Shown here in pieces: positions 1-63,681 of a DNA stretch of 64,000 nucleotides. Position numbers and translations under genes: made by a program. The first letter of the stretch is position 1. The number at the start of each line of letters is the position of its first letter. The stretch lies in the IMG/VR virus record IMGVR_UViG_3300010226_000003; one strand, written 5' to 3'. The stretch is from an uncultured virus (IMG/VR IMGVR_UViG_3300010226_000003) (Duplodnaviria; Heunggongvirae; Uroviricota; Caudoviricetes). Below the pieces are notes generated by a model that was given only the letters and a program-made list of their open reading frames with translations, was not told the DNA's origin and did not search any database.

Positions 1-917
1 CGCTGAGTAGGATTAGCTGACTTTGCATTGTCGGTAAAGAGCTGGTGATAGTCACAGATCACAATGTCTGGCCTGTGCTGCTCAATCTTGCCCTGTACGA
101 CGTTAGGAGTTACATCACCAATTCCCTCGTTAGAGACAATGGTGAATGCTGGGGTGTCGGTTAGCTTCTTCTTTCCCCACTCGCGGAAGTTATCAATGTT
201 GATCTGACCACGAGCGAAGTCAGTAGCTGAGAATAGACCAGACGCCATCATTGTGTAGAGTCGGTCACGCATATTCTCAGGACTCATCTCAAGAGAGACG
301 ATCATAGGCTTATAGCCCTGGAGCCATGCCTGAATAGCAAGATATGATGTAAACCACGTCTTACCACGTCCTGGCCAACCGATAGCCACGATAAAGTGAC
401 CACCAGCCATACCCGTAGGATAGGCTGCATCGATTGCTTTAATGTTCGTCTTGATACCGACTGCACCCGTTACCGCCGCCTTTTCCTTGACGGTTAGAAG
501 GTGCCTCTCGGCCTGCTCATAGTCAGTGATATCAAGGTCACGAACGTTGTTGGTGAATCGACCCAGATTGCCTAGCTCTTGCATTAGCTTGTCAAGAACC
601 TGAGCAGGCGCGTACTTGTCGAGCGCTCCCATACCCTTCTGCATGATCTCGTCCATGCGAGAGTACAGGAATTCTGACTTTAGTTCTTCCAGATAGAAGG
701 CAGGTTCGGCGTCAGCCTGCACTGCCTCTAGCTGCTTGAACTTATCAGTCAGAACTGTGATGTCCGGGATGGACTTGTACTGCATGTAATACTGACGCAT
801 TGAGATCCACACGTCCCGGAAAGGACCGAATAGATCATCAACGTTGTCCGCCATTAGTGGAGCAATCTGCTTTGTAGTGCAGACTGAATTAATTAGCTTC
901 TCCGCTGTTGTTGGCAC
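1..917 (-). CDS. dnaB: DnaB-like replicative helicase (3' end outside window)
   Basis: Hand translation from GTG at 917 (GGAGG upstream): MPTTAEKLINSV..., Walker A VAIGWPGRGKTW, VSLEMS, Walker B DIVICDYHQL. Not in ORF track because it is truncated. Confidence 0.9.
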   Translation of the reverse strand, partial: MPTTAEKLINSVCTTKQIAPLMADNVDDLFGPFRDVWISMRQYYMQYKSIPDITVLTDKFKQLEAVQADAEPAFYLEELKSEFLYSRMDEIMQKGMGALDKYAPAQVLDKLMQELGNLGRFTNNVRDLDITDYEQAERHLLTVKEKAAVTGAVGIKTNIKAIDAAYPTGMAGGHFIVAIGWPGRGKTWFTSYLAIQAWLQGYKPMIVSLEMSPENMRDRLYTMMASGLFSATDFARGQINIDNFREWGKKKLTDTPAFTIVSNEGIGDVTPNVVQGKIEQHRPDIVICDYHQLFTDNAKSANPTQ

Positions 918-3865: not shown

Positions 3866-4305
3866 CAGTATCCAAGAGCAAGGAAGTGAACGTTGACACC
3901 GTAATGGAAATAGTTGCTCTTTGAGCTAAGTTCATCAGAGTCTACCACCGCTGTGAATCCTCGGTGGTCCGGCCAGTATTCTCCTCGAACACCACGAATG
4001 ATGCAATGGATTCTGGACTGCTTCTGAATTACCTGACTCGTTACAACAATAGGCTTGCATCCTACTGAGAAGAAGTTACCAAAATAGACTTCCTTCTCGT
4101 AGTGACGACCCTTTCCACCCTTGATGTATACGTAGCCTCCCATGATCTTCAAACCAGAAGTCTTCTTGATTCCGTGAGCATTGTAGAATGCGACAGGCTG
4201 ATTCTCAAAAATGTACTGATCGTTGCTGCACATCTGATTAAGCTTCTCACGGGTAATCTGTTCGCCTAGACTCCAGCTTGTAGGCTTGTAGGGGGTAGTT
4301 GCCAA
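3865..4305 (-). CDS. hypothetical, probable minor tail-associated protein
   Basis: 146 aa, WSLGEQITREKLNQM N-terminus typical of tail-fibre-associated proteins; location. Confidence 0.55.
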   Translation of the reverse strand: MATTPYKPTSWSLGEQITREKLNQMCSNDQYIFENQPVAFYNAHGIKKTSGLKIMGGYVYIKGGKGRHYEKEVYFGNFFSVGCKPIVVTSQVIQKQSRIHCIIRGVRGEYWPDHRGFTAVVDSDELSSKSNYFHYGVNVHFLALGY

Positions 4306-4712
4306 GTTATCTTCTCTCCTTCCTTATGTAGAGCTATTTCACTAGAAGGAGCTTCAATCATCTTGTCCTTCGGAAATAGCATGACATCAAAGAAGTCAGG
4401 AGAATCGATAAGTCTTCTAAGGTTCTCTGATATCAGATACATTTTACCATTGGACATATCCTTAACCAAAGTTCCCTGACGGAATCCTAGCTTACCACCG
4501 ATCTTATGACGAGACAATGCAGCTTCGCTTGACTTCAAGATGTATGGAAATCCCCAGCTATCGAGAATGCGCATGCTGGTAATGCGATACCTGAACTTGC
4601 CCTTGATGTAGAATAGACCATTCTCAGTCTGAACACAAGTACCCGTAGGATAATCTACGGGTACTTGTGGGGCAATTTGAGGCTTAGCCTTCCTTCGCCA
4701 CAGTCTCATCAA
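4266..4712 (-). CDS. hypothetical protein with two internal repeats
   Basis: PTGTCVQTENGLFYI / RQGTLVKDMSNGKMYLI repeats. Confidence 0.65.
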   Translation of the reverse strand: MMRLWRRKAKPQIAPQVPVDYPTGTCVQTENGLFYIKGKFRYRITSMRILDSWGFPYILKSSEAALSRHKIGGKLGFRQGTLVKDMSNGKMYLISENLRRLIDSPDFFDVMLFPKDKMIEAPSSEIALHKEGEKITWQLPPTSLQAGV

Positions 4713-4884
4713 GCTTGGCCTTTAGTTCTGTATTCTCCTTGCGGAGCGCTTCTTGCTGATCGTTCATCTCTTGCACGGCAATGGTGAAGTCAGCTCTAAG
4801 GTCCGCGATCTTCTCTTCATACTCAGCAGTAATTTGAGCGATACGTTCCTTAATAGCTAGAAACTTAAGTGTTTCCTTATTCAT
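4684..4884 (-). CDS. coiled-coil hypothetical protein
   Basis: MNKETLK..., heptad pattern. Confidence 0.65.
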   Translation of the reverse strand: MNKETLKFLAIKERIAQITAEYEEKIADLRADFTIAVQEMNDQQEALRKENTELKAKLDETVAKEG

Positions 4885-7900: not shown

Positions 7901-10900
7901 CTCCAACAGGAGCCACACCGACAGATGAGAACTGAGACCAAGTTACTCCATCAATTGGAATTACCACACCGTTTGTGTCAACTGGAGCAGGCATGTCATT
8001 GAAGGTTGTACTAATGGTTGCATTTGCAGCGTCCTTCCACACAATGTTCATCTTTAGATTGTCTCTGATGATTGTGTTGTTTGGGAGCATTCGAGCTGAG
8101 AATGTGTAGCTATATCCTGGCTTTACATTGACAACTGTTCCCATTCCGTATACACCATTTGAGGAACCAACCTGATCCCATCGGACAGATGCCGTTCCTG
8201 TGAACTTCTTGGTGGTGTCTCGCGTAATGCTGTTTGTACCGTAGGCGAACCATCCAGTCGTGTTTGTTTCAAATCCTGAGTTGCTGTTCAGGGTCGCTAC
8301 GGAGTACGCACGGATACGCGCGGAGATACGGTAGAGAATGGTTGGGTCGTAAGCAACCTTGGTAACACCAGTTGCATTTCTCAGAACTAGGCCAGGACCA
8401 CTGAATTCAAATAGTGATTCAGCAGAGTACGCACCAGGGTCAGTCTTCTGAGTTACAGAACCATACGTGAGCCAAAGAGTTCCGTCCTGCATGTAGTCGA
8501 ACAACTTGGCATAAGTGTTGTTCTGCATTGGTGAGTCAAGCGCAGTTACCTTGATTGAGTTGACAGCAAGGTTACGGAATTCAGCATATCCGTCATTACG
8601 AATGATCCATCCAGATGTACCAGCAGAATAGTTGGCTGAGTGGATTCGGCTATTTACACCATCACCAGTTGGATTAGTTGGGTCACCGACGACAATACGT
8701 CCTCGAACTGTGGCATCACCAAATTGGGCACCACCAGTCATGTTAATTGACCATGCTGGCTGCCCTGAAAGACCATTTGCCAAAGCGGTTGAACGAATTT
8801 CACCAGTACGGATGATTCCACCATCAATGGTTGTGTAGCTTGGTGCTCTCCATGGAGATGGAGTTGTCAAGCTGGTGAGCTTTCGCTCAATCTGCAAACC
8901 ATCGAAGTACACGGTTCCAGTTGTGTAAAGGCTCAAGTAGGTAAGGAAGCTAGTGTTATTTCCTGTGTTAAATGTACCTGAGATTCTGGTCCATGTGCTA
9001 TTTGCCGTAATTGTAGGAGTGGCACCAGGCTGTACGAATGTACCGTCTGCTAGCTTGACTGCAAGACCGACCACCTTGTTTCCAGAACCAGTAAGATTCA
9101 AGACATAGGCAGAGAAGATGTAGTCAGTATTTGGCTCACATAGAGTGTTGTAATCAGTTGATGTAGCTGCCTGATAAACTCTGGAGAACGTTCCTCCACC
9201 GGTCCATGTGTGCTTGAGAGCCTGAGTTCCGAACTTAGAAGCAGGAATTTCAGGAGCAGTTGCAATTGCCCATGAAGTCGTTCCGCCGTCGTTGAAGGTG
9301 AAATGCTTTCCAGTATAGAAAGTTGTCTGGAATTCGTAATCAGCAAACTGAGGAAGAACGATGTTTGGAGCATCCTGTAGCTGCAATGCGGCAGCCTTGA
9401 TTGTTCCACCATTGATTTCAAGAGCGGTATTGGATAGCTGGTATCCGCTCGTTCCTGCTACGTAGTTGGTTGACTTGATTACACCACCAGTATCTACTGT
9501 CAGAGCTGACTTGATAAGAAGATCATTGATGATACCAGTACCGGCTGTGATCTTGTTTGCATCAAGGTTATTGATCTTGGCAGACGTGATCGTAGCATCG
9601 GCAATGTTTGTATTGACAATCAGACCGATGGTTACGGCAGCTACCGCAGAAGCAGAAGACTTTAGTCCTCCACGGTCAACGGCAATGACTCGTACCCACT
9701 TACCGGTTGTGGAGTCTGTAACGGCCACAGGGAAAACTTCGGAAACGAATGTGCTACCTGGCTCGACCTGCAATTGTCCAATTAGTGTGGAGTCGCTTGC
9801 GGTGAAGGTAGAAGTCGTTCCTAGGTGTACCTCAAGATAGGCAACGTCAGCTTCAAGACGACCAGTCGTAGACTTCTGCAATGCGTGATTAACCTGTAGC
9901 TGCAAGGAACCTGTTGAAGCAGTAGGAGCCGCAGGAGTAGATGGTGCAGTATTCGCCGCCGTCGCATTTACAGCAGTTGAGAATGCTGATCTATTTGTGC
10001 TTCGGTCAAATGACTGGACTGAGAAATTGTACTGAACACCTACAACTAGACCACCAATTGTGATTGAAGTTGTTCCCACTGGAACGTTTACATAGTCGTA
10101 AGTCGTTGAAGCGTTCTGCTTGTATCGTACAACATATCCTGCTAGGTCAGTATCAGATGGAGCAGTCCATGAAACGGCAGCAGTAGCAAATGCAGAATCA
10201 TTGGTATCAGTTGCCATTGTTGCAGCAAGACCGGTTGGGACACCTGGAGCAGTCGTATCGACATCAGTTGGTGAAATTGGGGTCGCTGAAACAGTGACGT
10301 AGTTTGAAATGCTATCGAATACGTCACGTGATCTAATCTTGAAGTAGTGGATAACTCCCAGAGAGCTTGAATCATATACGACGGTGTTTCCGGTTCCGCT
10401 GTAGATTCTGTTGCTGGTTGTTGGCGTAAATCCAGATCCAGAAGTGCTCATGTATACGTCATAGGCAGCAAGGTCATCGATTGACTGAACATCCCAGCGC
10501 ATACTTACACCGCCCACAATTCCAGCAGCAACTACACCTGTTGGATCAGGTGGTGGTGGATTAGTGGCGGATACAGTTGAAGATGCGTCTGAGAAGTTTC
10601 CTGTGGTGTCCACAGCAAATACGGTAATTGATAGGGTGGCCTGTGGAGTACCGAAGAATGCCTTATTCGTTTCGAACGGAAGATCGTAGAAGTTGTTAGT
10701 TGTCCTAACATCCTTGTAGGTCACACCGCTCTGAATTCTGACAATGTAATGAGAGAAGTCTAGGAGAGGTGATGCATCTTCGTTCTGAGTTACTGCATCC
10801 CACTTACCAGAGAATGCACTTCTATTGACAACCCATGTGACATTCTGCACCGGGGCTGGCGCTAGAGTATCAGTTACGGTTGTCATAGGGAATACTCGAC

Positions 10901-18700: not shown

Positions 18701-21700
18701 GGATGTACTTGGCAAGATCTCTAAAGTCAGATGTCGCCTTGCCCTGTGGAATACCCTGCATATCTGCGAAAGTCTTTGAGAATCCCTTTACTGCGTCATT
18801 AGCACGCTGGACCTTGTGAACTTCATCAATGGACATTCCAAGCTTCTGAGTGATAGGAGTTCCGTCGTTGTTTCCATTCTCTGCGAAATACTTTGTGAAG
18901 TCAGCGAAGGTCTCAATACCCATCTTCTTGAAGTCAGATGCGTACTTCTTCTTGTAGGTTTCGAATAGCTTGACAGNNNNNNNNNNTGGCAGCGGTAGCG
19001 ATCTTGTCGAATACCTTCTTCTTTTCCTCATCCTGAGTATTGTCAAAGATGTCCCACAGATCCTTAGCGTTCTGACGAACTGCGACTCCAGCCTTCTGCT
19101 GAATTGTTCCTGGGTTAGCGAACCATCTGGCGAAGCTCTCGGACTTGTCCTGATCAAACTTCAAGTTAGTAGCGTCAGACATGTCCTGAGTAGCTTCCTT
19201 GATTCTCTTCTTGATAACATCTGAAACGTCATCGAAGTCAACCTTTACCTTTAGCTGTGATTCGAATTCAGCGTTAGAGAACTTCTCACCCATAATGGCA
19301 AGGGCTACCTTGGTAGCTTCCTGCGCCGCGCTTACTGTACCACCGTGAAGACGAACCTTTGTTCCCTCTTCAATTGCACGAGCCCACTTTTCTGCCTTTG
19401 ACGCATCGTAATACTTCTGCATGTCATTGTAGGCATCCTTGTTGTTCTTCTTGAACTCGTTCATACGGTCGTTCATTGACTTTAGGTTTTCCTGGTTCTT
19501 GGCAACGATCTTCTGCTGCTCAGTGTAGGTGAATCCTAGAGTCTTTGCCCATGCGTCAGCAGACTTCTCGACGTTTTCCTGTTCCTTTCGAGAAGCTGCG
19601 ATGTTCTTGTTAATGAAGTACCAAGCTGCACCAATAGCAAGAGCTGCTGCTAGCATCGTTCCCATGATTGCTGACATACCACCCATTGCCGCAATTGGAC
19701 CTGCCATTGAAGCTCCGATTGAACGGAATGCTGTAACACCACGTGCTGCAATTCCACCGAACATAGAGCTAGCTGCGGTACCTACTGCTGAGATGGCTGG
19801 AAGGACGGCTGTCTTAATAGCTCCACCGACCTTCATGATAGGACCGATTAGCATTGGACCAATGAGCGCCGCGCCGATTGCAATCTGAGAAATGGTGTAC
19901 ATCATGCTGTCAGCATCGGATGCCATAACTCCCATGAATCCTGCTGCAACAGCTACATTCTGGAAACTGCTTCCCATCTGCTGCCAGCTTCTACGGGTTC
20001 CGGCTGCATTCTGATTAATGCTTGCAGAGGATGCCTGAGCTGCCTGCCAATTTCTAACCTCAGCGGCAGTAAGAGTTCTACCAGTGGCGTCACGATATCC
20101 TGCACTGGGATAGGCGCTCCGGAAACAGTTCCAGGACGGACACCTAGTCCACCTCTAGCCTGAGCATTATTCAATCCAACCTGAGCACCAGTTGCTCGTC
20201 CAAGAGCAATTGTGAGTTCATTGATGACTGCGGTTAGTGCTGCAATTTGTCCAGTCTGAGTTTGTGCTGCTACACCAGCCTGCATAGAGGCCAGTCTTGC
20301 TGCTACTTGTTCTGGTAGAAGTGCTCTGAATCTGAATACAAGTCCGAGCATTCCGGCACCGAGCTTTAGAGCCTGACCAAGAAGGTTACCAAATAGACCA
20401 GCAAGCATGATGATAGGACCGGCGATAGCACCAGTGATTACCGCAATTGATGCGAATGTCTTTACAGGGCCAGGAAGCTCATTGAATGCCTTTACGATCT
20501 TAGTAACAGCACCGACAATGTAACCAGCAACCTCAAGGAACGGCTTACCAGCTTCGGCTAGCTGAACCTTTAGAGATTCAATAGCGATCTTTAGTCGTCC
20601 AGATGCTGAATTCTGTAGGGCTTCCATCTCTCGGCTGGCACTGTCTGCCCATGCTGACTGCTCTTGTCCAGCAATCTTGTAAGCCTTACCAACCTGAGTC
20701 GTTTCGTCATTAAGGTTACCCATTTCTTCAACGATGGCCTGTAGACGTGTGGTCTGCTGAGTTCCGAATAGGGCTGCGAATAGAGCCTGACGATTCTTTC
20801 CTCTTAGATTTTCAGTTGCCTTGTTCAGAGCGACGAAGGTTGGGATAACTTCACCATTAGTCTTGTCAGTTAGCTCTGTTAGGGACTGCTTGGTAAGAAT
20901 TTCAAACATGTCCTTAGCCTGCTTTGTTGGCTTAAGGACTCGGGTGAATGACGCCTTAATTGCGTTAGCACCTTCGACAGCATTGATTCCACGGGCACGC
21001 ATTGCAACAAGCAATGTACCTACGTCCTGTAGGCTACCACCAAGAGTCTTCATTGGTGCAGCTACCTTTGGAATAGCCTTAGAGAAGTCTTCGATAGATA
21101 GAGAGGTTGCATTCTCCACCGCGTTCATGTAGTTGAAGTCTTCTGCTAGCTTAGAAGTATTGTCACCATAAACGGACTGCAAGGTGATGGTGGTATCTAG
21201 AGCCTTCTGGTAATCCATTTCACCAAGGGTTGCAAGACGCATAACCTCAGTTGTCTTACCAATAAGCTCATTACCCTTTTCACCGGTCGCGGCTAGATTA
21301 GCCTCTACGCTTAGGGTGTCCTTCATTGAGGCACCGAATTGTTCTGCTGCCGTCTTTGCAGCTCGCATGGAGTTCGCTCTTAGGGTGGCTGTCTCCTGCA
21401 TGTTCTTTGCAGCATTCTGATCCTTCGTAGCAGAGAAGTCGTATACCTTATTGATACGAGTCATCTGTGATTCTACGTCATAAGCAAGCTTACCCATTGC
21501 AGCACCGGCCGCGAGGACAGGCACGGTCAAACCAACCATTAGCTGACGACCGGCCCACTGAGTGTTCTTACCCCACTTGATCATATTCGCAGCAGCGGAA
21601 TTTGCCACTTGGCTAACGAGACCCATCTTAATGGCCATCTCGCCCAGAGCGACATTCATAGAAACGGTTCCGGCTCGTACTGCGTTAAGTGTTTGTCTGA

Positions 21701-29530: not shown

Positions 29531-31110
29531 TGAACTTGCCTTCCGTCACCCTTAGCGTTTCTTCCCTCTCCTGAATTATCTGGAGAATTGGCTGAGCGTT
29601 GTGCGTCACGCTGCCTTGTTTGATTTGTCTGAGCCCTTGCCTCGGCCTGCTGCTGTGGCTTCTGCTCGACCACCTTGTCACCACCATCGAGACCAGGCAT
29701 GCCCTTACGAGCACGAATCTCGTTAGGTACCATCCACTGGTTTCTGATAGCTCTCTCATCAATCTTGCTCTGAGTATCTTCGTCTGTAAGAGATAGCTCG
29801 TTGAGATGAATGAGGAATACGTCAGTGACTTCTCTCATAACCTTGTTTAGCTTGTTTTCGAAGATAGTCTGTTCTGGACGACAGACCTGCTCCTTAAATG
29901 TCTTGTCAGCATCTCGGGCAACTGCAAGGCTTACTCCCTCTGCAAGACCTACCTTTGAAATAGGAACTCGGTGAGCCATGAGGATATCATTCAGGTTTCC
30001 CTTACGGTAATTGTTGAATGATGAATCCTGGGTTCCAGCTTCCACCGGCTTCATTTCAAATGATGTCTTTCTGTCCTGCTCATCGGCTGGCAGAGGAACA
30101 TACAGAGTTCTGTGATTCTTTCCCTTTAGGGAAGTCTGGAAGAACTCANNNNNNNNNNCAGTAATTCTGCGCTCTGCTGCTGGAGAAAGCTTTCCACCCT
30201 TAATGATGATGACGTAACGTGGAACAGCCTTGTTCTCGAAGTAGTCAAGGTTGAAGCGTGTGGCAAATTCATTACCAGCTACCGCAGCCTTGGCAGCAAC
30301 GATGTCAGGAATTCCGTAGAATCCATTGCTTGGTGCGTACTTCTTGATGTGGATTACTTCATTAGGTCTGCTGTCTCCACCCACCGGGTCAGTTGTCTTA
30401 CTGTCTCCGAAGTTTCGGAAGAATACAGCCTTATTTGAAATGATCTGAACAAAGCCATCTCTGGCCTGTCGAATTCTCATGCTAGTGCTTGGAACGTGAC
30501 CGATGTAACCGATCTCTCCTGTGTTCTTTCGACCAATCTCAAGGTAGCCGTTTCCGGTAACCTCGTAGTCTGTCCACACCTTAATGAGAGTTTCGATAAA
30601 GTCGTCTTCTTCATTACAGCTAGCAATCCATTCCATAAGGCGCTGCTTTTCTCTTTCGAGCTTAGCTCGTGCCTTCTTGGTCTTGTCTTCTCCATCAATC
30701 TTATCTAGGGCCTGCTTTGTCGCCGGGCTTTCTACGAGATCGTAGCCAAGTCCAACAATGTTGGCCACCTTAGCCTTTACGGCTGAGTAATGTGGAGGAG
30801 ATACTTCATATAGCTTTGCAAGATAATCGAGGTTGTATGGCGGAAGGATTACCTTGAATGCGTTGTATCCAGTGATGTCCTCCGTCTCAATCTTCTTTGA
30901 GGCAGCACCATCTGTACCACGATAGAACTTATTGATCTGCTTCGTGGTACTGATCTTGAAGGAACGTGATAGTCCGTCCATCTCCCTGATCTCGGAAGCC
31001 TTTCTCAGAAATGGATCAGGATCGTGATCAATTGTTCTGGAGACTTCATTGCCTAGGGAGACTTCAATGAACTGTTCCTCTTCTGCCTCTACGACTCGAT
31101 TATCTGTCAT
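29527..31110 (-). CDS. portal protein (N-gap 30149-30158)
   Basis: TGNGYLEI, NEVIHIK, FYGIP, ILMAHRVP, NEIRARKG motifs. Confidence 0.92.
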   Translation of the reverse strand: MTDNRVVEAEEEQFIEVSLGNEVSRTIDHDPDPFLRKASEIREMDGLSRSFKISTTKQINKFYRGTDGAASKKIETEDITGYNAFKVILPPYNLDYLAKLYEVSPPHYSAVKAKVANIVGLGYDLVESPATKQALDKIDGEDKTKKARAKLEREKQRLMEWIASCNEEDDFIETLIKVWTDYEVTGNGYLEIGRKNTGEIGYIGHVPSTSMRIRQARDGFVQIISNKAVFFRNFGDSKTTDPVGGDSRPNEVIHIKKYAPSNGFYGIPDIVAAKAAVAGNEFATRFNLDYFENKAVPRYVIIIKGGKLSPAAERRITXXXXEFFQTSLKGKNHRTLYVPLPADEQDRKTSFEMKPVEAGTQDSSFNNYRKGNLNDILMAHRVPISKVGLAEGVSLAVARDADKTFKEQVCRPEQTIFENKLNKVMREVTDVFLIHLNELSLTDEDTQSKIDERAIRNQWMVPNEIRARKGMPGLDGGDKVVEQKPQQQAEARAQTNQTRQRDAQRSANSPDNSGEGRNAKGDGRQVQ

Positions 31111-33235: not shown

Positions 33236-33277
33236 GTAATCATTATAAAGNNNNNNNNNNCCAAGTCCATAAAGCGC

Positions 33278-34908: not shown

Positions 34909-36865
34909 TCAGCTAATATCGACTACTTCACATCCACCAGCGGCGGAGCAAGCAAGCTCCTGAGAGCCAGTCGTATTGTCCTCAAACTCATATGTGGGGA
35001 GTAGATCCCATTCAATCTTTTCTGGCATGCGCTCAAGCCATTCCTTGTATTCAGCCTCAGAAATAGACTGATAAGGTGCCTGCTTGTACGTGTGCTCAGA
35101 GAATGGCAGGAATGAGATTCCAGAAACTTCATCGAAGTTCTTGTAAACCCATGCTCCTACTTCCATCCATTCGTGTTCCTTAACAGAAACTGTAATGNNN
35201 NNNNNNNGTAATGCTTGGCTTATGATCACACCATGATCGCTGATAGGCGAGCCAAATTTCAAGGTGTTCAATCGCTGTGAGGTCATTTCTGGTAAGTGCT
35301 CCTGGCGCAGCCTTCTTTGGGAAGCTAAAGACTGTTGTGTCATTAGGCTTCATCACGTCAGGCTCGTTTGGAATCCCTGAGTCCTTGAGGAACTGAGTAA
35401 GAGCGTCCTTGTTGTCGCCTCGCACAGTTCTGATGTAAAACTCATCGTGCTCTGTATGCATTCCACTTGGAACACCGGCCCTTTGAGAAACCGTTCCAGA
35501 AGGCTTGACACAGGTAATTGCAGCAGACTGAGGAATTCCAATTGCCTCGGCAAGCTCAGCATTTGTTGCAATAGCCTTGTATCTCAGAGCCTCAAGAGTA
35601 TCCTTTAGCTCCTTGATTCCTTCCTGGCCACTCATCAGCCTGTTTCCAAACTGACCAGTCAAAGAAACGCCAAGTAGTCTTTCTTCTTCGGTGTTCTTCT
35701 TCCAGATCTTGCGGAGATACTTGAAGTTCGTTAGAGTTGACTGCCATGTTCCGATGATCGTTGCGGCCTTGACCTTGAGCATCAGAGATTCAACAGTGTC
35801 ATCTGGACGAATGATCACTTCTGTAAGGTTGCAGAACTGGTTAGGTCGAAGGATAATCTCGCTGCACGGATTAGTTCCGAAGTCGAAATTGCCTTCTCGC
35901 CTTCCATTCTTACGCACCTGATTGATTGCAGCCTGCCTATTGAAGATTCCACGCTCTCCAGACTTGGAGTCGTAGAGGTTCTTCCATTCGGCCATGAATG
36001 CAGTCATGTCAGGCTTGCTTGTGTAGGCTACTGAGTTATTGGCCAAAGCACGCTGAGGGTTGTTCTCCCACCAGTTTCCTGCTTTTGCTGTAGCCATTCT
36101 CAGGTCGCTTAGATCGCTAAGTGAGATCAGAGCACTTCTTCGAACGCCACCAACAACAACTACTTCTGCAATCTTACAAACAAGGTCATGAGCCTCAAGG
36201 GAAGTGAGCTGACGACCAGCAGCCTTTGTGAACACGTCAATAGTGAACTGGAATAGCTGCTCTAGTGGACCAGGACCACTTGCACGTCCACCAAAAGTCT
36301 TTAGCCTTGCCCCTGCCGGGCGAACCTTTGAGGTATCCCAACGAGGAACACGTCCTCCCCATAGAAGGCTTAGAAGCTCACGATATGCACGAGCCCAGCC
36401 CTCCTTTGAGTCAGCGACCTTGATCACTGATTCAGTTGCTTCGAATTCTTCTGCAATGACAGGAAGCTTACGTACATACTTCTCTTCAACGGAGAATCCT
36501 ACACCGGTTCCATTCATCAGAATGTACAGAGTCTCGTCAAAGGCTCGAACATCATCAATTGGAACATATGAGCAGTTGTATGCAGCAACATTGTCTCGAT
36601 CAAGAGCTGCACCCGCAGTCATGAGGGCACGCATAGATGAAACAACTCCCTGATTAAGCATTTGTGCACGTACTAGATCAAGATCTTCCTGTGGAACATC
36701 GTAATCGTGATTCTTCTTGAGGCTGTCAACCATGTAGGCTAGATAGCGCTCAGTTGTTTCTACAAAAGTTTCGCGGCGGCCCTTTTCCTCTAGCCACCGC
36801 GCATACCTGCTGGTATGAATAAAGTTCTGATATGGGTCTTCAAGAAAACCCTTGTCGTCATACAA
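34909..36865 (-). CDS. nrdJ: class II (B12-dependent) ribonucleotide reductase, single gene split by N-gap 35198-35207
   Basis: YNCS, GTNPCSEI, FCNLTE, CVKPSGTVS, C-terminal ELACSAAGGCEV; CATTAC duplicated across the gap restores KPSITVSV. Confidence 0.92.
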
Positions 36866-40379: not shown

Positions 40380-40582
40380 CACGATGCGAACAGATTATCC
40401 GCGAATGCATGATTTCTTGCGGATGGCAAGCACATGAAGCTGACAGCGCTATCGAAGATCTAAAGCGCGAGGCTATTGAATCAGATCAGGCATGGCAGCA
40501 AGAAACCCAGAATCTACACAGCGCGATAGATGATGCAGTAGAAGCCCTTCACACGACTCTCTACAATTTGAGAAATGCGTGA
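40376..40582 (+). CDS. hypothetical protein
   Basis: MTRCEQII..., ATGA overlap. Confidence 0.55.
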   Translation: MTRCEQIIRECMISCGWQAHEADSAIEDLKREAIESDQAWQQETQNLHSAIDDAVEALHTTLYNLRNA

Positions 40583-40594
40583 TAGACTAGATTC

Positions 40595-40894
40595 ATGTGG
40601 TCAGATTTTCATAAATACAATCAGCTCGTCAGGGATGGAAAAGTCCCGGCGCTAGTATGCCCAGATTGTCATAACAACTTAATATTGCGCGCAAAGCTTG
40701 ATGCATCTTCCGACCCATATCTCTGGTGTCCGATCGATGATAAATATATCAAACCAGGATTAGGGATGCATCATCAAATCAAATCTGCAATCAAGGAGGT
40801 GGAGCGTGCTAGAACAGAAGCTAGAAGAGATTCTGGAATGGTTGCTAACTCTCTCCTTGGCAGTCAAGGAGAACCATTGGAATCTCCGAGGTAA
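40595..40894 (+). CDS. zinc-ribbon hypothetical protein
   Basis: CPDC...CPID; leaderless TAGACT-N6-ATG. Confidence 0.6.
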   Translation: MWSDFHKYNQLVRDGKVPALVCPDCHNNLILRAKLDASSDPYLWCPIDDKYIKPGLGMHHQIKSAIKEVERARTEARRDSGMVANSLLGSQGEPLESPR

Positions 40895-41207
40895 GGAATT
40901 CTTCTATCTTCACGAGAAGCTAGATGAACTTCATGAAGATATCACCGAATACGCCGATACTGTTGCAGAGCGAGCACGAGCAAGAGAGATGTATCTTGCT
41001 CCAAAGGTCGCCTATGAATTCTCTGGTGAATCAGTCTCATATCTGCAAGTCGTAAACGGAGTGAAGTCTTCTCTTGAGAACTTGACAATGGTTCTGTCAG
41101 GTGCTATCTTTAATATTACCGACGACCTCGCTACGCAAGATGTACTCATCGAAATTAAGCGCGGCGTCGATAAGTGGCTCTGGATGTTTACAGAGTCAGC
41201 AAGATAA
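40806..41207 (+). CDS. dps: Dps / ferritin-like DNA protection protein
   Basis: HWNLRGKEFFYLHEKLDE...DTVAERAR...DLATQDVL...DKWLWM ferroxidase signature. Confidence 0.85.
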   Translation: MLEQKLEEILEWLLTLSLAVKENHWNLRGKEFFYLHEKLDELHEDITEYADTVAERARAREMYLAPKVAYEFSGESVSYLQVVNGVKSSLENLTMVLSGAIFNITDDLATQDVLIEIKRGVDKWLWMFTESAR

Positions 41208-41217
41208 ACAACTTAAT

Positions 41218-41249
41218 AGCAGGGCACCCAATCGGGTGCCCTGCCTTTT
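41218..41249 (+). terminator. intrinsic terminator
   Basis: GCAGGGCACC-CAATCG-GGTGCCCTGC-CTTTT. Confidence 0.8.
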
Positions 41250-41265
41250 GTCTATAAGGAGACCA

Positions 41266-42150
41266 ATGAAAAAGCCCGACATCCAGCGTCTTATGGATTG
41301 GCGGGGCGCAGTTTCATTCGGATCAGTGCTGATCGTTGCTCTCGCTTTGAGTTGGTGGAGCCTATATTCAATGGCTGTGGAATTCTACGGAGTTCCCAAG
41401 CAACTAGCTTTCGGAGTGAGTATTGCGTTCGACGGCGCTGCTTTGTTTGTTGCTGACCTTGCATCCAAGTACGCTCGAACAGAAGATAGTGGTCTAGCTC
41501 CAAAGCTGGCCACTTACGCATTTGTAGGAACATCTGTATACCTGAACGTAGAGCACGCAGCGCTGCTTAACTACGGGACTCCTGGAAAAGTTCTTTTCGG
41601 TGCCCCTCCAGTTATCGCAGGTGTATTGTTTGAATTGTACCTGCGCTTCGTACACCGTTCTGAGATGCGTTCCAACGGACTGGTTCCCAAGCGTATGCCA
41701 GTCTTCGGCAAGGTAAGCTGGATGATCTTCCCAGGGAAGACATTCAAGGGATTCAAAAATGTTGTGTTCTTCCGACTCAATGAAGTCGTGACAAACGTGA
41801 CAGGTGAAAGTTTGTCACGCAAGCGTGACAAGCCAGTGACACCGAAGAAAATGTCACGTGACAATCGTGACAAAACAGGTGACAAAAGTGTCACAAAGCC
41901 TGTCATGACAAAGAGTGACACGGCTGTCAAGGAAGAAGTGGCTGTCACGCCTATCGTGACAAAGATGACAGAAATTCCTCGTCGTGACGTGACAGATGAC
42001 AAGCAAAAGAGCGTGTCACGCCTGGTCAAGGAGCTATGGGATGACGGGACCCGTGACAAAGCTGAGCTGCGAAAGCTGATTAGTGACATCAAGGGTCGTG
42101 ACATTCCTGCCAATACGATCACGGTTGCTCTGTCACGTATGTCACCTTGA
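41266..42150 (+). CDS. membrane-anchored putative DNA-binding protein (DUF2637 / Streptomyces plasmid Spd-like)
   Basis: AAGGAG RBS; four N-terminal TM helices (LSWWSLY...FDGAAL...SVYLNVEH...APPVIAGVLFEL), low-complexity linker, C-terminal HTH-like SVSRLVKELW...PANTITVALSR. Confidence 0.65.
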   Translation: MKKPDIQRLMDWRGAVSFGSVLIVALALSWWSLYSMAVEFYGVPKQLAFGVSIAFDGAALFVADLASKYARTEDSGLAPKLATYAFVGTSVYLNVEHAALLNYGTPGKVLFGAPPVIAGVLFELYLRFVHRSEMRSNGLVPKRMPVFGKVSWMIFPGKTFKGFKNVVFFRLNEVVTNVTGESLSRKRDKPVTPKKMSRDNRDKTGDKSVTKPVMTKSDTAVKEEVAVTPIVTKMTEIPRRDVTDDKQKSVSRLVKELWDDGTRDKAELRKLISDIKGRDIPANTITVALSRMSP

Positions 42151-42224
42151 CACGTGACAAAAAAGGTGACACTCTAGTGACATGAACATAGATGACCTCA
42201 TTGAGGAGTGGCATGACGGTGACA
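41788..42224. repeat. dense array of GTGACA/TGTCAC hexamers
   Basis: 24 exact copies counted by hand in both orientations, plus single-mismatch variants. Confidence 0.95.
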
Positions 42225-42328
42225 GTCCTCTGCCACTCCATGAGTTCTTGGGAATGACACTTGAAGAGTACGACCTGTTTGTTAGGTTTGGGACTCTTCC
42301 AGAAGGGATAACTGATGGCCGTTCCTAG
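42182..42328 (+). CDS. small hypothetical protein (48 aa)
   Basis: MNIDDLIEEWHDGDSPLPLHEFLGMTLEEY... Confidence 0.6.
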   Translation: MNIDDLIEEWHDGDSPLPLHEFLGMTLEEYDLFVRFGTLPEGITDGRS

Positions 42329-42476
42329 ACCTAGGAATGTGAACGAAGCTAATCGAATACTTGAGGCTGCTCAGAAGTCTTACGTCCGCGCCCGGCGCGA
42401 GAAGAATATGGGTGAGGCTACTAAGCAGTCAACAATAATCAAGGCAATGCATGATTGGTTGGCAGAACATGGGTGA
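42315..42476 (+). CDS. small hypothetical protein
   Basis: MAVPRPRNVNEANRIL...; similar helical basic pattern to next ORF. Confidence 0.55.
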   Translation: MAVPRPRNVNEANRILEAAQKSYVRARREKNMGEATKQSTIIKAMHDWLAEHG

Positions 42477-42636
42477 TCTGAATGTGCGCAGAGCGCTGAA
42501 TAGCTTGAGAGAGCAAAGGCGAGATGCTTCAAGGGCATATGAAAAGGCCCGGCGCATAAATGACCAAGTAGGAATGCAACGAGCGAAGAAAGAAATAAAG
42601 CGTCTAGACGGAGAGATTGAGAATCTAGGTGGATAG
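42469..42636 (+). CDS. small hypothetical protein
   Basis: MGDLNVRRALNSL... Confidence 0.55.
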   Translation: MGDLNVRRALNSLREQRRDASRAYEKARRINDQVGMQRAKKEIKRLDGEIENLGG

Positions 42637-42892
42637 ACAAGAAGCTTTGGAAATACTCGACTGCTTCCTCTTTGAGGACATAATAAACAACCGAAACCCG
42701 TATGAAGAACGATGCAAGATCACATATGTTGGTGATCATTTCGCAGTTCTCGACACTGAAACGGGCGAGGTTCATAAATTCAAGATGCAATTTGTAGAGT
42801 CCGACCTGGCGGAAGACGAGTGGAATCAAGTCTTCGAGAATCAGGAATGGGACTGGTATATCAACAGAGAATGGGAAAATGACGAAGATTGA
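42629..42892 (+). CDS. acidic hypothetical protein
   Basis: 87-aa ORF overlapping neighbours. Confidence 0.6.
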   Translation: MDRQEALEILDCFLFEDIINNRNPYEERCKITYVGDHFAVLDTETGEVHKFKMQFVESDLAEDEWNQVFENQEWDWYINREWENDED

Positions 42893-43616
42893 CGGTGTAG
42901 ATTCAATTATCACTTGCCTTGACAAGGGCTATGTACGCCTTGTAGACTCTATGGGCAGTGATCTTTCTATCGTCAATGCAGCTCGTGTATCCTATGCAAA
43001 GGAGTCAGATGACTTTTCCGACAAGGACGATAGACTACTAAAGTTCCTTGTCAGGGAAGGTCATCTTTCCCCGTTTAGGCATGCTGCATTGACATTTGAG
43101 GTATACGCTCCACTATTCGTGGCGCGTCAGTGGTGGAAGTATGCTGTGGCATCTAGCCACCTGGAAGATCAAACTGGATGGAATGAGTCTTCTCGAAGAT
43201 ACATTACCGAGGAGCCGGAATTCCATGCTCCAGATATGACACAGTGGCGTACAAAGCCTGCGAATAGCAAGCAAGGAAGCGGCCCGGCGCTAAAGGCTTA
43301 TTCAGATACATGGCCTTATCATGACGCAGGAGACTTCTGGACAATGACACTACAAACCTTCATTAATGAATCTGAGAAGCTTTATAATCAGGCTCTAGAA
43401 GCAGGTATTGCACCAGAACAGGCAAGGCTATTCCTTCCTGCATATGGAATGTTCGTCCGGTGGCGTTGGACAACCTCTCTGGCTGCCGTAGCTCATTTCC
43501 TTGCAGAAAGACTAGAGCATGATGCGCAGTACGAGATTCAGCAGTATGCTAAGGCTGTCAATGATCTGACAAGCAATATCTTCCCAAAGACATTGGAGGC
43601 ACTAAATGCAAAATGA
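42879..43616 (+). CDS. thyX: flavin-dependent thymidylate synthase
   Basis: IVNAARVS, GHLSPFRH, NESSRRY, PEQARLFLP, HDAQYEIQ. Confidence 0.92.
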   Translation: MTKIDGVDSIITCLDKGYVRLVDSMGSDLSIVNAARVSYAKESDDFSDKDDRLLKFLVREGHLSPFRHAALTFEVYAPLFVARQWWKYAVASSHLEDQTGWNESSRRYITEEPEFHAPDMTQWRTKPANSKQGSGPALKAYSDTWPYHDAGDFWTMTLQTFINESEKLYNQALEAGIAPEQARLFLPAYGMFVRWRWTTSLAAVAHFLAERLEHDAQYEIQQYAKAVNDLTSNIFPKTLEALNAK

Positions 43617-43824
43617 GCCCGGCGCAGAAGAAACAGATGTATTCGATAGAGATAGCTATGAAGTAGTAAATACCATTATGCTTCTAAGACTATATGATGT
43701 CATGATGTGTGTAGCAAGAGGGGTAAATCCAGAAGAAGCAGTAAAGCTGCTCGCACTGCATAAGCAAGGCAAAATTGCTGGGCCTCCGCCAAGCTGGGAT
43801 ATGAGCGATGACTCACAAGACTGA
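43606..43824 (+). CDS. hypothetical protein
   Basis: GGAGG RBS, overlaps thyX. Confidence 0.6.
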   Translation: MQNEPGAEETDVFDRDSYEVVNTIMLLRLYDVMMCVARGVNPEEAVKLLALHKQGKIAGPPPSWDMSDDSQD

Positions 43825-44035: not shown

Positions 44036-44286
44036 CCGTCCCGGCAGCAAGATCATCTATTTTCAAATTCGAAATGTCAGTAATTTTTAGTCATGTATGA
44101 TACATGCTTCGCATACCTTTGTAACAATCCGATTAGTGCGCCCATATCCCTTGACATTCTCTCCGGGGAAGGTTCCACAAGGCAGGGCAGGCCATTTGAA
44201 AACAGTGTTCAAAAGCCGTGTGCGCCCGTCTGCGGGCATGAAAGTGCCCCTAGGTACTCAGACCTAGGGGCTACTCTCAAAGGCTC

Positions 44287-44748
44287 TCAGATGCTCTCAG
44301 GACGCTTCCAGTTGGCACGACCCCGGTTAGCCTGCGGGCCCTGCTTAACCTTGCCACTGTCCTTGATCAACTTACCGTCCCACATCGAACGATTGTCGTA
44401 GAGAGGCACGAGCACATCAGTAAGGGCATCCTTACCCATGTCCTCATTGCACTGCCTGCAAAGGGGAAGCATGTTCGCTGCACAGTAGGTGCCACCCGTA
44501 GCGTCAGCCTCACAGTGACCAAGGTTCAGCGTGTCCATGTTCCGGGGCGCACCCCCCACGTATGCGTTCTCACCGCACCCCACACACACAGCGTAGGTCT
44601 CACCGTCCGAGTGACCCGTAAGGCTTGCCAGGTACAGCACCGTAGCGAGGAGCTGCCTACGGTACGCGCTGCCCGCCGTACGGTCGTTGTCCCTGCACTG
44701 GTGGTTGTTGGCGTTGTGTGCGGTGACCGGGGCGGTGGTGGTGATCAT
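44287..44748 (-). CDS. HNH endonuclease
   Basis: CVGC...NLGH...ANMLPLCRQCNEDM; AAGGGAG RBS; hairpin downstream at ~44247. Confidence 0.75.
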   Translation of the reverse strand: MITTTAPVTAHNANNHQCRDNDRTAGSAYRRQLLATVLYLASLTGHSDGETYAVCVGCGENAYVGGAPRNMDTLNLGHCEADATGGTYCAANMLPLCRQCNEDMGKDALTDVLVPLYDNRSMWDGKLIKDSGKVKQGPQANRGRANWKRPESI

Positions 44749-45331
44749 TGTCTGTCTCCCTTGTGTTCGTCGTTGTACCTACATTCTGCCCTAGGTACCG
44801 GGCCTGAAACCACCCAATCCCACGTTTCTTAGGTAAAGACTTGGTAACGACCGGGGCGGCCGGACATACCAACCAAATCGGACATTGGGTACATACCCAC
44901 ACATAGGTGTACATATAGGGCATATGGGTGCATACCATACCATACTGGTACAGATGGGGCGTATAGGGCAGGGGGCACATAGGGGACATTCCTCTTTACG
45001 GGGACATTAAGTATTTCCGGGACATATCCCCCGCGCGTGTACGACTGGCCACAAAATTTCCCGGAGGATCTAGGTTGTGCATGGTGCATGGCCTGTGTAT
45101 ACTGGTACTACACCAAGACGGAAGGGACTGATCAACTTGACCACTCTCGATCTTCTGGAGCGGGCAGTATCTGAGGGGTGGGTATCCGTATCTACCCTGT
45201 CCACTACGGTACAGGATGACATGCGTACCGTGGACATGGACGAGGACGCCTACCCGCACGTATCCGAACTGGCGTAACTAAATAGGGGGCTATCTACGGG
45301 TAGCCCCCTATATGGGCAGAAAGGGAAAGCA

Positions 45332-45544
45332 ATGTTTCGGAAAAAGGCAAAAAACGTTCTGACGCATTCGCTTACCCTCAAGCTCGAAAAGAACGGCCTC
45401 TTTTCGGAAACGGGCGTAATTTCTTCGGGAAATCTCGAAATTCTTCTTCGGAAGTACAATGAAGGCGGATTTCGCCCGGTGGAAGCAAAACATTCAACTT
45501 ATTGCCACTGTGGCACTGGAAAGGGCGAAACCTATGAATGCTGA
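45332..45544 (+). CDS. hypothetical protein
   Basis: GAAAGGG RBS, overlapping 3-gene unit. Confidence 0.55.
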   Translation: MFRKKAKNVLTHSLTLKLEKNGLFSETGVISSGNLEILLRKYNEGGFRPVEAKHSTYCHCGTGKGETYEC

Positions 45545-45722
45545 CCGTATGCAAACCCTTCTTGAGGGAATGCGTGATCTGGCAGCAAAGGCACAACTGA
45601 TGCCCATCACAAACGAAACCATGGCCGCTGGGATGGCTCTGGCGGAGATGTTCGAGGAATTCGACCTTCTGATTCTGGAAAACCGAACGATTCCTACCGA
45701 ATGGGAACGATTCCGTGGCTGA
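45534..45722 (+). CDS. hypothetical protein
   Basis: MNADRMQTLL... Confidence 0.55.
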   Translation: MNADRMQTLLEGMRDLAAKAQLMPITNETMAAGMALAEMFEEFDLLILENRTIPTEWERFRG

Positions 45723-52206: not shown

Positions 52207-52317
52207 CACGGGCCTTCGGGCCGGGGCGGCGAGACAAATCGGACATAATTTCATGTTGACCCTAGCCGCCTGCCCTGTTAGACTTTAACTACAACGAAGG
52301 ACAACGAAGGGAACCAA

Positions 52318-63491: not shown

Positions 63492-63681
63492 GGACCTCCA
63501 AAATACAGTTTACACCAAGAGAACGGATCTTTTTAATCAGGTCGCTGATCTGCTCGGTGATCAACATCCTGTTATGTTCAGAAAGGTGATCGAAGGTACT
63601 GCTGTAGGCTCTCAGAGCGAAGTTAGGAACGTCATGCTGCGTTGCAGGGTATTGAACNNNNNNNNNNTTCTCTACCCTCAT
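63451..63681 (-). CDS. hypothetical protein (N-gap 63658-63667 near start)
   Basis: MRVE...VQYPATQHDVPNFALR... Confidence 0.5.
   Translation of the reverse strand: MRVEXXXXVQYPATQHDVPNFALRAYSSTFDHLSEHNRMLITEQISDLIKKIRSLGVNCILEVHDAPGKPSGSGSQ

Follow-up and report, generated by a model that had tools for sequence, protein, structure and literature searches.

A hexamer array within a Streptomyces phage DUF2637 gene as a putative docking site for its own membrane protein

Why would a phage write two dozen copies of one DNA hexamer into the gene of a membrane protein? The question is raised by the uncultured-virus record IMGVR_UViG_3300010226_000003, a stretch of 64,000 nucleotides (hereafter the window) that comes from a cluster-BE Streptomyces phage (Karimacvirus, Stanwilliamsviridae) and carries a gene for a protein of the DUF2637 family, the 3′ half of which is filled with GTGACA on either strand. 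We consider it slightly better than an even bet that these sites are docking sites for the helix-turn-helix (HTH)-like tail of the protein in whose gene they lie, tying the phage DNA to the membrane. Binding by the tail, tethering to the membrane and loading in cis would be the parts of such a system, and a part in transfer, replication or retention might follow downstream of them. Positions 40500-43700 gave 37 matches among phage records, all of them Streptomyces phages, the best being Karimac (90.5% identity, 92% of the query covered); statements about the whole genome refer to the nearest full record, G001, of 121,054 bp.

The GTGACA array and the gene that carries it

GTGACA or its complement TGTCAC occurs 56 times in the window, of which 24 copies fall at 41788-42224 (array 1, Table 1) and 32 elsewhere, and the expectation from the background rate in 437 bp is 0.22 (Poisson P ~2e-40). 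It is the only hexamer of the window to cluster this strongly, reaching 23 copies in 450 bp where the runner-up has 7. An earlier sequence-only reading had counted the same 24 copies, with palindromes at 41852 and 41901, additional one-mismatch copies, both orientations, several reading frames and no site in the 5′ half that encodes the transmembrane (TM) helices, and each of these points was reproduced. The head-to-head pair TGTCACGTGACA and the palindrome TGTCATGACA (41901-41910) are present, one-mismatch hexamers number 19 in 41700-42300, the exact sites divide into 17 on the plus and 7 on the minus strand and fall in every codon frame (7 in frame 0, 13 in frame 1, 4 in frame 2), and 41266-41787 contains none. 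The extended motif is c-GTGACA, with C at -1 in 15 of the 24 sites. Array 1 begins at codon 175, spans the linker and tail codons and reaches 74 bases past the stop, so that 20 sites lie inside the coding sequence and four beyond it (42154, 42166, 42177, 42219). The claim that the sites continue past the stop codon therefore holds for the spacer; what had been called the next gene is a 48-amino-acid open reading frame (ORF; 42182-42328) of doubtful reality. Because this ORF is missing from the Karimac RefSeq annotation and its stretch diverges in four of the six aligned relatives (Yaboi, Wofford, StarPlatinum and LukeCage), 42151-42314 is probably spacer.

Array 1 is selected at the level of DNA and not as protein, as had been proposed. 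When the coding sequence was resampled synonymously, with phage codon usage and the amino acids fixed, 5000 draws gave 2.86 +/- 1.56 sites with a maximum of 9, and the observed number is 20. The resampled expectation was exceeded in all six other genes to which the procedure was applied, although the codon tables are rough for short loci: those of the satellite phages MiniFlayer (16 observed vs 1.3 expected) and Mulchroom (17 vs 4.4), of the phages Jay2Jay (11 vs 2.4) and Coruscant (15 vs 1.6), and of two plasmids (34 vs 7.0 and 28 vs 9.9). In an alignment with six relatives, in which gaps were scored as differences, 91 of 864 hexamer positions differ (10.5%), compared with 405 of the 1758 other positions in 41788-42224 (23.0%). 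At 41889 the window has TGTCAC where Karimac and StarPlatinum have GTGACA, the site being retained with its strand flipped. An artefact of repeated protein sequence is ruled out by the three frames, the two strands, the post-stop sites and a second, non-coding array.

The protein matches Pfam DUF2637 (PF10935) over residues 23-165 with 28.9 bits (cut-off 22.8), in line with the resemblance to DUF2637 noted in the sequence-only reading, and its Karimac orthologue is labelled 'DUF2637 domain-containing protein' in RefSeq. The architecture read from the letters, four TM helices, a linker and an HTH-like C-terminus, is borne out by AlphaFold2, with alignments of 21 rows for the full-length protein and 10 rows for the tail alone. 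Four long helices would form a multi-helix membrane domain (predicted local distance difference test, pLDDT, 60-82), followed by a predicted disordered linker that varies in length and sequence among homologues and over whose codons array 1 is densest. The tail is confidently predicted as a three-helix bundle (residues 250-259, 265-276 and 282-292; pLDDT ~83 in the full-length model, core above 90 when folded alone), in which ANTITVALSRM is the putative recognition helix. Fold matches to the tail are weak (Foldseek E 2.8 or worse, VIA-align Z <=5.8) and are mostly HTH DNA-binding domains, among them the N-terminus of the G20c small terminase, ArgR, the Mos1, Tc3 and ISCth4 transposases, AsnC/Lrp, KorB, Rok and GcrA; the label HTH-like thus reflects a fold that is predicted with confidence and has weak structural matches, and does not come from homology. 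The full-length model had no match among PDB structures at E <=0.001, and the best match of the tail sequence to plasmids had an E of 3. A profile of the tail retrieved only 13 proteins at E <=0.001 from 1.84 billion representatives, and the best nine matches end within 4 residues of the protein's end; given so few matches and their C-terminal placement, the tail is by these searches a narrow, lineage-specific domain.

Private words, protein tails and a second array

Do related proteins carry the same sites? A tblastn search with the protein found 106 phage records, of which 105 bear the name Streptomyces phage and the remaining one the name Satellite phage. At BE-type loci GTGACA is the top hexamer of the gene's 3′ half in 3/3, 3/3 and 14/14 loci of the sets compared, with 11-26 copies per 450 bp and some phages counted twice. 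More distant homologues carry arrays of other hexamers (Table 1). Among homologues, with or without an array, the DUF2637 score is 27.0 bits in Wakanda, 21.6 in Mulchroom, just under the cut-off, and 22.8-68.5 in plasmids, and the MiniFlayer homologue does not match the Pfam DUF2637 hidden Markov model. Most arrays share a GACA core, and the two bases before it vary with helix 3 of the tail. Karimac-like phages, with helix ANTITVALSRM, use GT-GACA as nearly the sole form (24 of 30 GACA), to which Tomas, Jay2Jay and Coruscant (xNT[IV][SN]KAVSRL) add AG-, GG- and CG-GACA. The word is GA- or AG-GACA in the contigs L035 and L036 (KGTINKSLSRM), AA- or GA-GACA in L038 (IGTINKTMSRI) and AC- or GC-GACA in Mulchroom (RSTLNTCIQRY). 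MiniFlayer (KAKVSKALSYT), in which the conserved T and R of the helix are missing, has TGCGAA and no GACA enrichment. The DNA word co-varies with the tail across lineages, and the check proposed in the sequence-only reading, for other hexamers in homologues whose tails differ, gave a positive result.

That reading had also proposed a purely one-gene module, a view not borne out by the whole genome. G001 has 100 GTGACA sites that form two clusters, array 1 and an intergenic, non-coding array 2 some 65 kb from it, bounded on one side by a terminator-like hairpin that follows the gene of a DUF3307 membrane protein, and on the other by a stretch of 29% G+C before the next gene. About 2 kb from array 2 is the gene of a 603-residue membrane-anchored protein that carries the SEA-PHAGES label FtsK-like DNA translocase, has Walker A/B motifs and a winged-HTH (wHTH)-like end, and matches Pfam only weakly (AAA_22). 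In 13/13 BE loci, a count that leaves out the incomplete locus L058, a GACA-dense window (12-18 per 200 bp, where the mean of the locus is 2.1-2.8) follows the FtsK-like gene at a distance of 1.9-2.8 kb downstream, and its dinucleotide spectrum is that of array 1 of the same lineage; in Jay2Jay the second cluster is inside an inserted 'hydrolase' gene. No match to the FtsK-like gene was found in the array-less phages Wakanda, BillNye and Hiyaa, and the relevant passage of a preprint (10.1101/2024.02.16.580700) states such a gene for BE phages only. A complex prediction that paired residues 1-150 of the FtsK-like protein with the membrane part of the DUF2637 protein, residues 1-180, scored 0.00 and gives no verdict.

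The satellites are informative in the same respect. Homologues in G001 exist for 5 of 43 annotated satellite proteins, and the DUF2637-like protein is the sole one of the 43 with a G001 homologue from both MiniFlayer and Mulchroom; its gene is kept in 4/4 satellites examined. The satellites have TerS and TerL genes of their own, and no FtsK-like gene was found in them. By their TerS, TerL, Lsr2 and histidine-kinase homologues L035 and L036 can be classed as Mulchroom-type satellites; their DUF2637-like proteins are 47-49% identical to that of the phage and in the tail match the Streptomyces chromosomal proteins P0064-P0069, which for this reason are probably encoded by integrated satellites. 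In the passages concerned, deCarvalho et al. (2023; PMC10690885) report satellites without key replication genes and primases that share 'a predicted membrane protein', and the passages on repeats and on that protein make no mention of a site array. MiniFlayer alone of the two named satellites has a second helper-like gene, gp17 (L004 13788-14111), whose small membrane protein is 60% identical to one encoded at G001 9824-10081.

As for the surroundings of the DUF2637 gene, it is preceded by a ribosome-binding-site-like aaggag and, directly upstream, by a Dps/ferritin-like gene (40806-41207; Pfam Ferritin, 41 bits) that is labelled 'DNA binding protein' in relatives and is followed by a strong terminator-like hairpin ending 22 bases 5′ of the DUF2637 start codon. 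The window contains five masked runs of ten N (18977-18986, 30149-30158, 33251-33260, 35198-35207 and 63658-63667) and, near 52,281, extends across the point at which the nearest record ends. Other clustered hexamers were noticed at 44200-45600, where a repeat scan gave two-copy families only. This region is the counterpart of a TACATA/ATGTAC/GGTACA cluster (<=9 per 450 bp) near an HNH endonuclease gene in BE phages, ~3.3 kb downstream of the DUF2637 gene (L028 ~6376 and equivalents in L022, L024, L034 and L037). In Hiyaa (L011), CGGGTC/CGGACC occurs nine times in 450 bp at ~4300-4750, within a minus-strand gene of unknown function that adjoins the array-less DUF2637 homologue. A pattern search for related loci in genome contigs gave 54 pattern matches, of which none was confirmed. 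Resemblances of the hexamer to sites of WhiA (GACAC) and BldD and to the DnaA box were dropped, without a dedicated search, because the hexamer does not fit.

Table 1. Features of the DUF2637 locus and of related arrays; positions are those of the window unless a record is named
Feature	Position	Strand	Remark
Terminator-like hairpin, 11 pairs (9 G-C), T tail	41219..41244	+	3′ of Dps/ferritin-like gene
DUF2637 membrane protein coding sequence (P0001), 294 amino acids	41266..42150	+	
Codons 1-179: four predicted TM helices (6-40, 45-70, 77-100, 105-136) and helices 146-179	41266..41802	+	AlphaFold2
Codons 180-242: predicted disordered linker, pLDDT <50	41803..41991	+	AlphaFold2
Codons 243-294: predicted C-terminal three-helix HTH-like domain	41992..42147	+	AlphaFold2
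Array 1: 24 exact GTGACA/TGTCAC and one-mismatch copies	41788..42224	.	Conserved in relatives
Head-to-head pair TGTCACGTGACA	41852..41863	.	Sequence inspection
Post-stop stretch with 4 further sites (probable spacer)	42151..42314	.	
Array 2: 12 exact GTGACA in 135 bp and degenerate copies	G001 45474-45608 (L013 4474-4608)		Outside window
MiniFlayer (satellite) homologue, 28% identity			TGCGAA x16
Mulchroom (satellite) homologue, 33% identity			ACGACA x17
L035, L036 (IMG/VR contigs, 12.7 and 14.8 kb)			Moderate GAGACA/AGGACA enrichment
L038			AGACAA x12
Two 93-kb Streptomyces plasmids			GAGCGC x24 and GAGACC x31, 3′ half of DUF2637 genes
pNO33 (plasmid)			Weak clustering only

Proposed docking by the tail, its precedents and its rivals

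How might a protein dock on its own gene? The sites would be written where the protein is least constrained, in the disordered linker, and would continue through the tail codons past the stop. With the four-helix DUF2637 domain in the membrane, a flexible linker of ~60 residues would let each tail reach hexamers of either orientation and irregular spacing, many weak contacts from clustered anchored proteins would sum to a firm hold, and array 1 and array 2 would serve as two points of attachment of the phage DNA to the membrane. During coupled transcription and translation the membrane domain would be made first and the tail last; since the tail would be completed last, from a gene already being drawn to the membrane, preferential loading on the encoding genome copy, that is, action in cis, would be favoured. 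The private words could be viewed as a means by which helper phage and satellite avoid competing for each other's anchor. Docking by the protein's own tail is supported by the selection on the DNA, by the way in which array 1 maps onto the codons of the disordered linker and the tail, by the change of word with the tail, by the dinucleotide spectrum common to the two arrays of each BE lineage, by the DUF2637-like protein being the one protein that both satellites share with the phage, and by the precedent of SpdA2, whose sites lie inside its own gene.

Several observations weigh against this explanation. The sequence-only reading had named the lack of any internal array in homologues as a ground for refutation. 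BE phages, satellites and two plasmids have such arrays, but the homologues in Wakanda, BillNye and Hiyaa (0/3) and in plasmid L043 have none despite similar tails, so a tail can exist without a cis array. L035 and L036 are only moderately enriched (GACA 23 vs 6.9 and 16 vs 5.7 expected). The fold matches of the tail are below the level that VIA-align counts as meaningful, and by sequence the tail has no Pfam match at E <=10 and a best PDB match of E 0.26. The covariation of word and tail comprises about eight lineages that are phylogenetically non-independent, any other lineage-diverging factor fits the BE phages equally well, and only the satellites and plasmids discriminate. Finally, the scoring of gaps inflated the rate of difference at non-hexamer positions in the poorly aligned linker.

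The precedent comes from the Streptomyces conjugative plasmids. According to the passages concerned in Thoma et al. (2014; PMC4170104), the site bound by SpdA2 of pIJ101 is a palindrome named sps, CGTCACGTGACG, which is contained in the coding sequence of spdA2 and encodes an SRDD/E motif; loss of SpdA2 or of the sps sites, which were removed by synonymous changes in pIJ303, lowered segregational stability. Two copies of GTCACGTGAC were confirmed in pIJ101, inside a 135-residue ORF (7970-8377). GTGACA is the half-site of sps, and the 10-bp sps core GTCACGTGAC occurs exactly twice in the phage genome, once per array (41853-41862 and G001 45492-45501), encoding MSRDN in the phage gene; the outer bases of the phage pair are T/A instead of the C/G of CGTCACGTGACG, and most array sites are single half-sites. 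The likeness is of a mobile-element DNA-binding protein with specific sites inside its own coding sequence and of a shared core that encodes S-R-D in both cases; the role that those passages give is stability or spreading and not replication. SpdA2 differs, however, in its 135 residues, its N-terminus with four cysteines by translation, described as a putative DNA-binding domain (PMC4170104), and the lack of any membrane part seen. It also differs in having two to three full 12-bp palindromes where the phage gene has 24 single hexamers, and SpdA proteins, as described there, share one word whereas the DUF2637 family of phages and satellites has private words. The earlier likening of the phage protein to SpdA-type membrane-associated binders blurs two proteins: in the parts of the two papers that describe them, SpdA2 is a small DNA-binding protein and the four-helix membrane protein is SpdB2 (PMC4170104, PMC4447253), and the phage tail has no sequence similarity to SpdA2. 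A tblastn search with SpdA2 against the whole phage genome found no homologue (best E 3.5), and the sps core may be there by chance, by convergence on a host factor or through cross-talk with resident plasmids.

SpdB2 of pSVH1 is described in the passages on it in Thoma et al. (2015; PMC4447253) as a four-helix, oligomeric, pore-forming membrane protein that binds double-stranded DNA non-specifically and is needed for intramycelial spreading and pock formation; putative homologues on actinophages are mentioned, and SpdA is proposed to link DNA to the translocation apparatus. It differs from what is proposed for the phage protein in this non-specific binding, and no site array is described for it there. 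Homology of the phage protein to pIJ101 SpdB was not established: BLASTP gave E 1.6 and hhalign a probability of 0.9%, and pIJ101 SpdB has no match to Pfam DUF2637. On Streptomyces conjugative plasmids the clt/TRS repeats, reportedly read by TraB, are clustered short sequences by which the DNA of a mobile element is marked for a membrane DNA-handling machine, and the phage likewise has its translocase near array 2. The TRS repeats are said to be 8 bp long and read by the translocase's own winged helix, unlike the phage words, which are 6-mers in both orientations that track the DUF2637 tail and not the translocase. Lambda O resembles the proposed phage arrangement in that its binding sites lie in the linker-coding part of its own gene and its action is preferentially in cis, but it is a soluble initiator with four 19-bp iterons and an adjacent A+T-rich region; the phage protein is predicted to be membrane-anchored, its sites are 24 hexamers, and array 1 lacks an A+T-rich stretch. 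The phi29 protein p16.7 is membrane-anchored with a small helical DNA-binding domain and holds replicating phage DNA at the membrane, but it has one TM helix, reportedly shows no sequence preference in DNA binding and is not known to have a cis array of sites. No description of the present arrays was found in the literature searched, and a full-text search found no functional study of DUF2637, a term that occurred once in each of the two papers matched and in neither title nor abstract.

What else might the arrays be? They could be replication-origin iterons, with the DUF2637 protein as an origin-binding organiser that recruits the replisome at the membrane and the satellites supplying only a private origin and its binder, an explanation that we consider improbable. 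Lambda O has its ori inside its own linker-coding DNA and P4 alpha has two iteron clusters, ori and crr; the phage sites, too, lie in linker-coding DNA in both orientations and form two clusters per genome, and array 2 is 115-190 bp from an 80-bp stretch of 29% G+C (genome 48%). The satellites, reported in the relevant passages to be without replication genes and primases (PMC10690885), nevertheless keep the DUF2637-like gene in 4/4 cases examined. However, the A+T-rich stretch is just 5′ of the next gene's start, the usual position of a promoter (a promoter scan listed no site in it), and array 1 has no equivalent, its 80-bp windows in 41100-42800 having 40-56% G+C. The predicted protein, with four membrane helices and an HTH of 50 residues, has no helicase, primase or AAA+ part, and the plasmid DUF2637 genes adjoin TraB-like, not rep, genes. 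The minimum of cumulative GC skew, ~5.5 kb away, is at a switch of gene direction and is uninformative on the origin; GC skew was rejected as a marker because it follows gene direction. Less likely than an origin is that the sites are read by another protein and only happen to lie in the DUF2637 gene. The main candidate would be the C-terminal winged helix of the FtsK-like translocase, in the manner of TraB and clt, although another phage DNA-binding protein would also serve. The membrane-anchored translocase with its wHTH-like end, the constant position of array 2 downstream of its gene and the lack of a matching gene in the array-less phages are all compatible with this. Yet Karimac-like and Samisti-like phages, which differ in both word spectrum and DUF2637 tail, show next to no variation in the wHTH C-terminus of the translocase. 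Private words occur in the satellites, where there is no FtsK-like gene, and phages, satellites and plasmids with little else in common carry arrays inside the DUF2637 gene. Because the words differ while the translocase wHTH hardly does, and because the satellites do without the translocase, the correlation points to the DUF2637 tail as the reader.

Regulatory sites, either an operator field for autoregulation together with control of a promoter by array 2 or decoys resembling a -35 element, have a slim chance. GTGACA shares five of six bases with TTGACA, the promoter scan lists array hexamers as -35-like, and array 2 is placed between a terminator-like hairpin and the upstream region of the next gene. 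On the other hand, 20 sites in the coding 3′ half, downstream of any promoter of the gene itself, make a poor operator layout, the satellite words TGCGAA and ACGACA are not -35-like, and a repressor needs no membrane anchor. Packaging sites for a small terminase, finally, would explain the private words of satellites that have their own terminases, and a small-terminase HTH, although itself weak (Z 5.8), heads the fold matches of the tail; array 1 and the satellite arrays are also 1-3 kb from a terminal repeat. But array 2 is in the middle of the genome, plasmid DUF2637 genes carry arrays with no terminase annotated in the 6-kb plasmid stretches examined, and the sites are tied to the DUF2637 gene instead of to terminase genes or the repeat boundary, which leaves packaging the least credible of these explanations.

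What the proposed tether may be for

If the tail does tie phage DNA to the membrane, to what end? Hand-over to the FtsK-like translocase, or Spd-like movement between hyphal compartments, is the purpose that we rate highest, at a little short of an even chance; such a plasmid-like role in transfer or spreading is favoured by the TraB-like neighbour of the plasmid gene, by the FtsK-like translocase of BE phages and by the array-less relatives without one. The organisation of replication at the membrane is a good deal less likely, and is kept in play by the reported lack of replication genes in the satellites and by the low G+C content beside array 2. Retention or segregation is less likely again, and other purposes take up the rest.

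A bolder possibility, to which we give an outside chance, is that BE phages are lytic phages with a conjugation-like DNA-moving apparatus and that satellites board it by means of a private anchor-plus-array cassette. The anchor would grip the genome at its two arrays and hand it to the FtsK-like translocase in the membrane, phage DNA would be pumped across hyphal cross-walls, and infection would spread in the mycelium without virions. MiniFlayer, Mulchroom and the integrated relatives would keep only the private cassette, which would let them use the translocase or the membrane replication site of the helper and leave the helper's anchor uncontested. If true, the cassette would take the place of the missing cis/trans element in satellites that are described as having no replication genes. 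The docking arrangement itself would constitute a compact, portable mark of 'self' DNA: an anchor and an address label in one gene, with the label in the linker codons. The docking of the tail on its own gene would offer a handle on how Streptomyces satellites are handled in helper-infected cells, and on whether phages of mycelial bacteria use plasmid-like Spd and Tra functions. The private words predict testable specificity swaps, and the DUF2637 family is provided with a working hypothesis.

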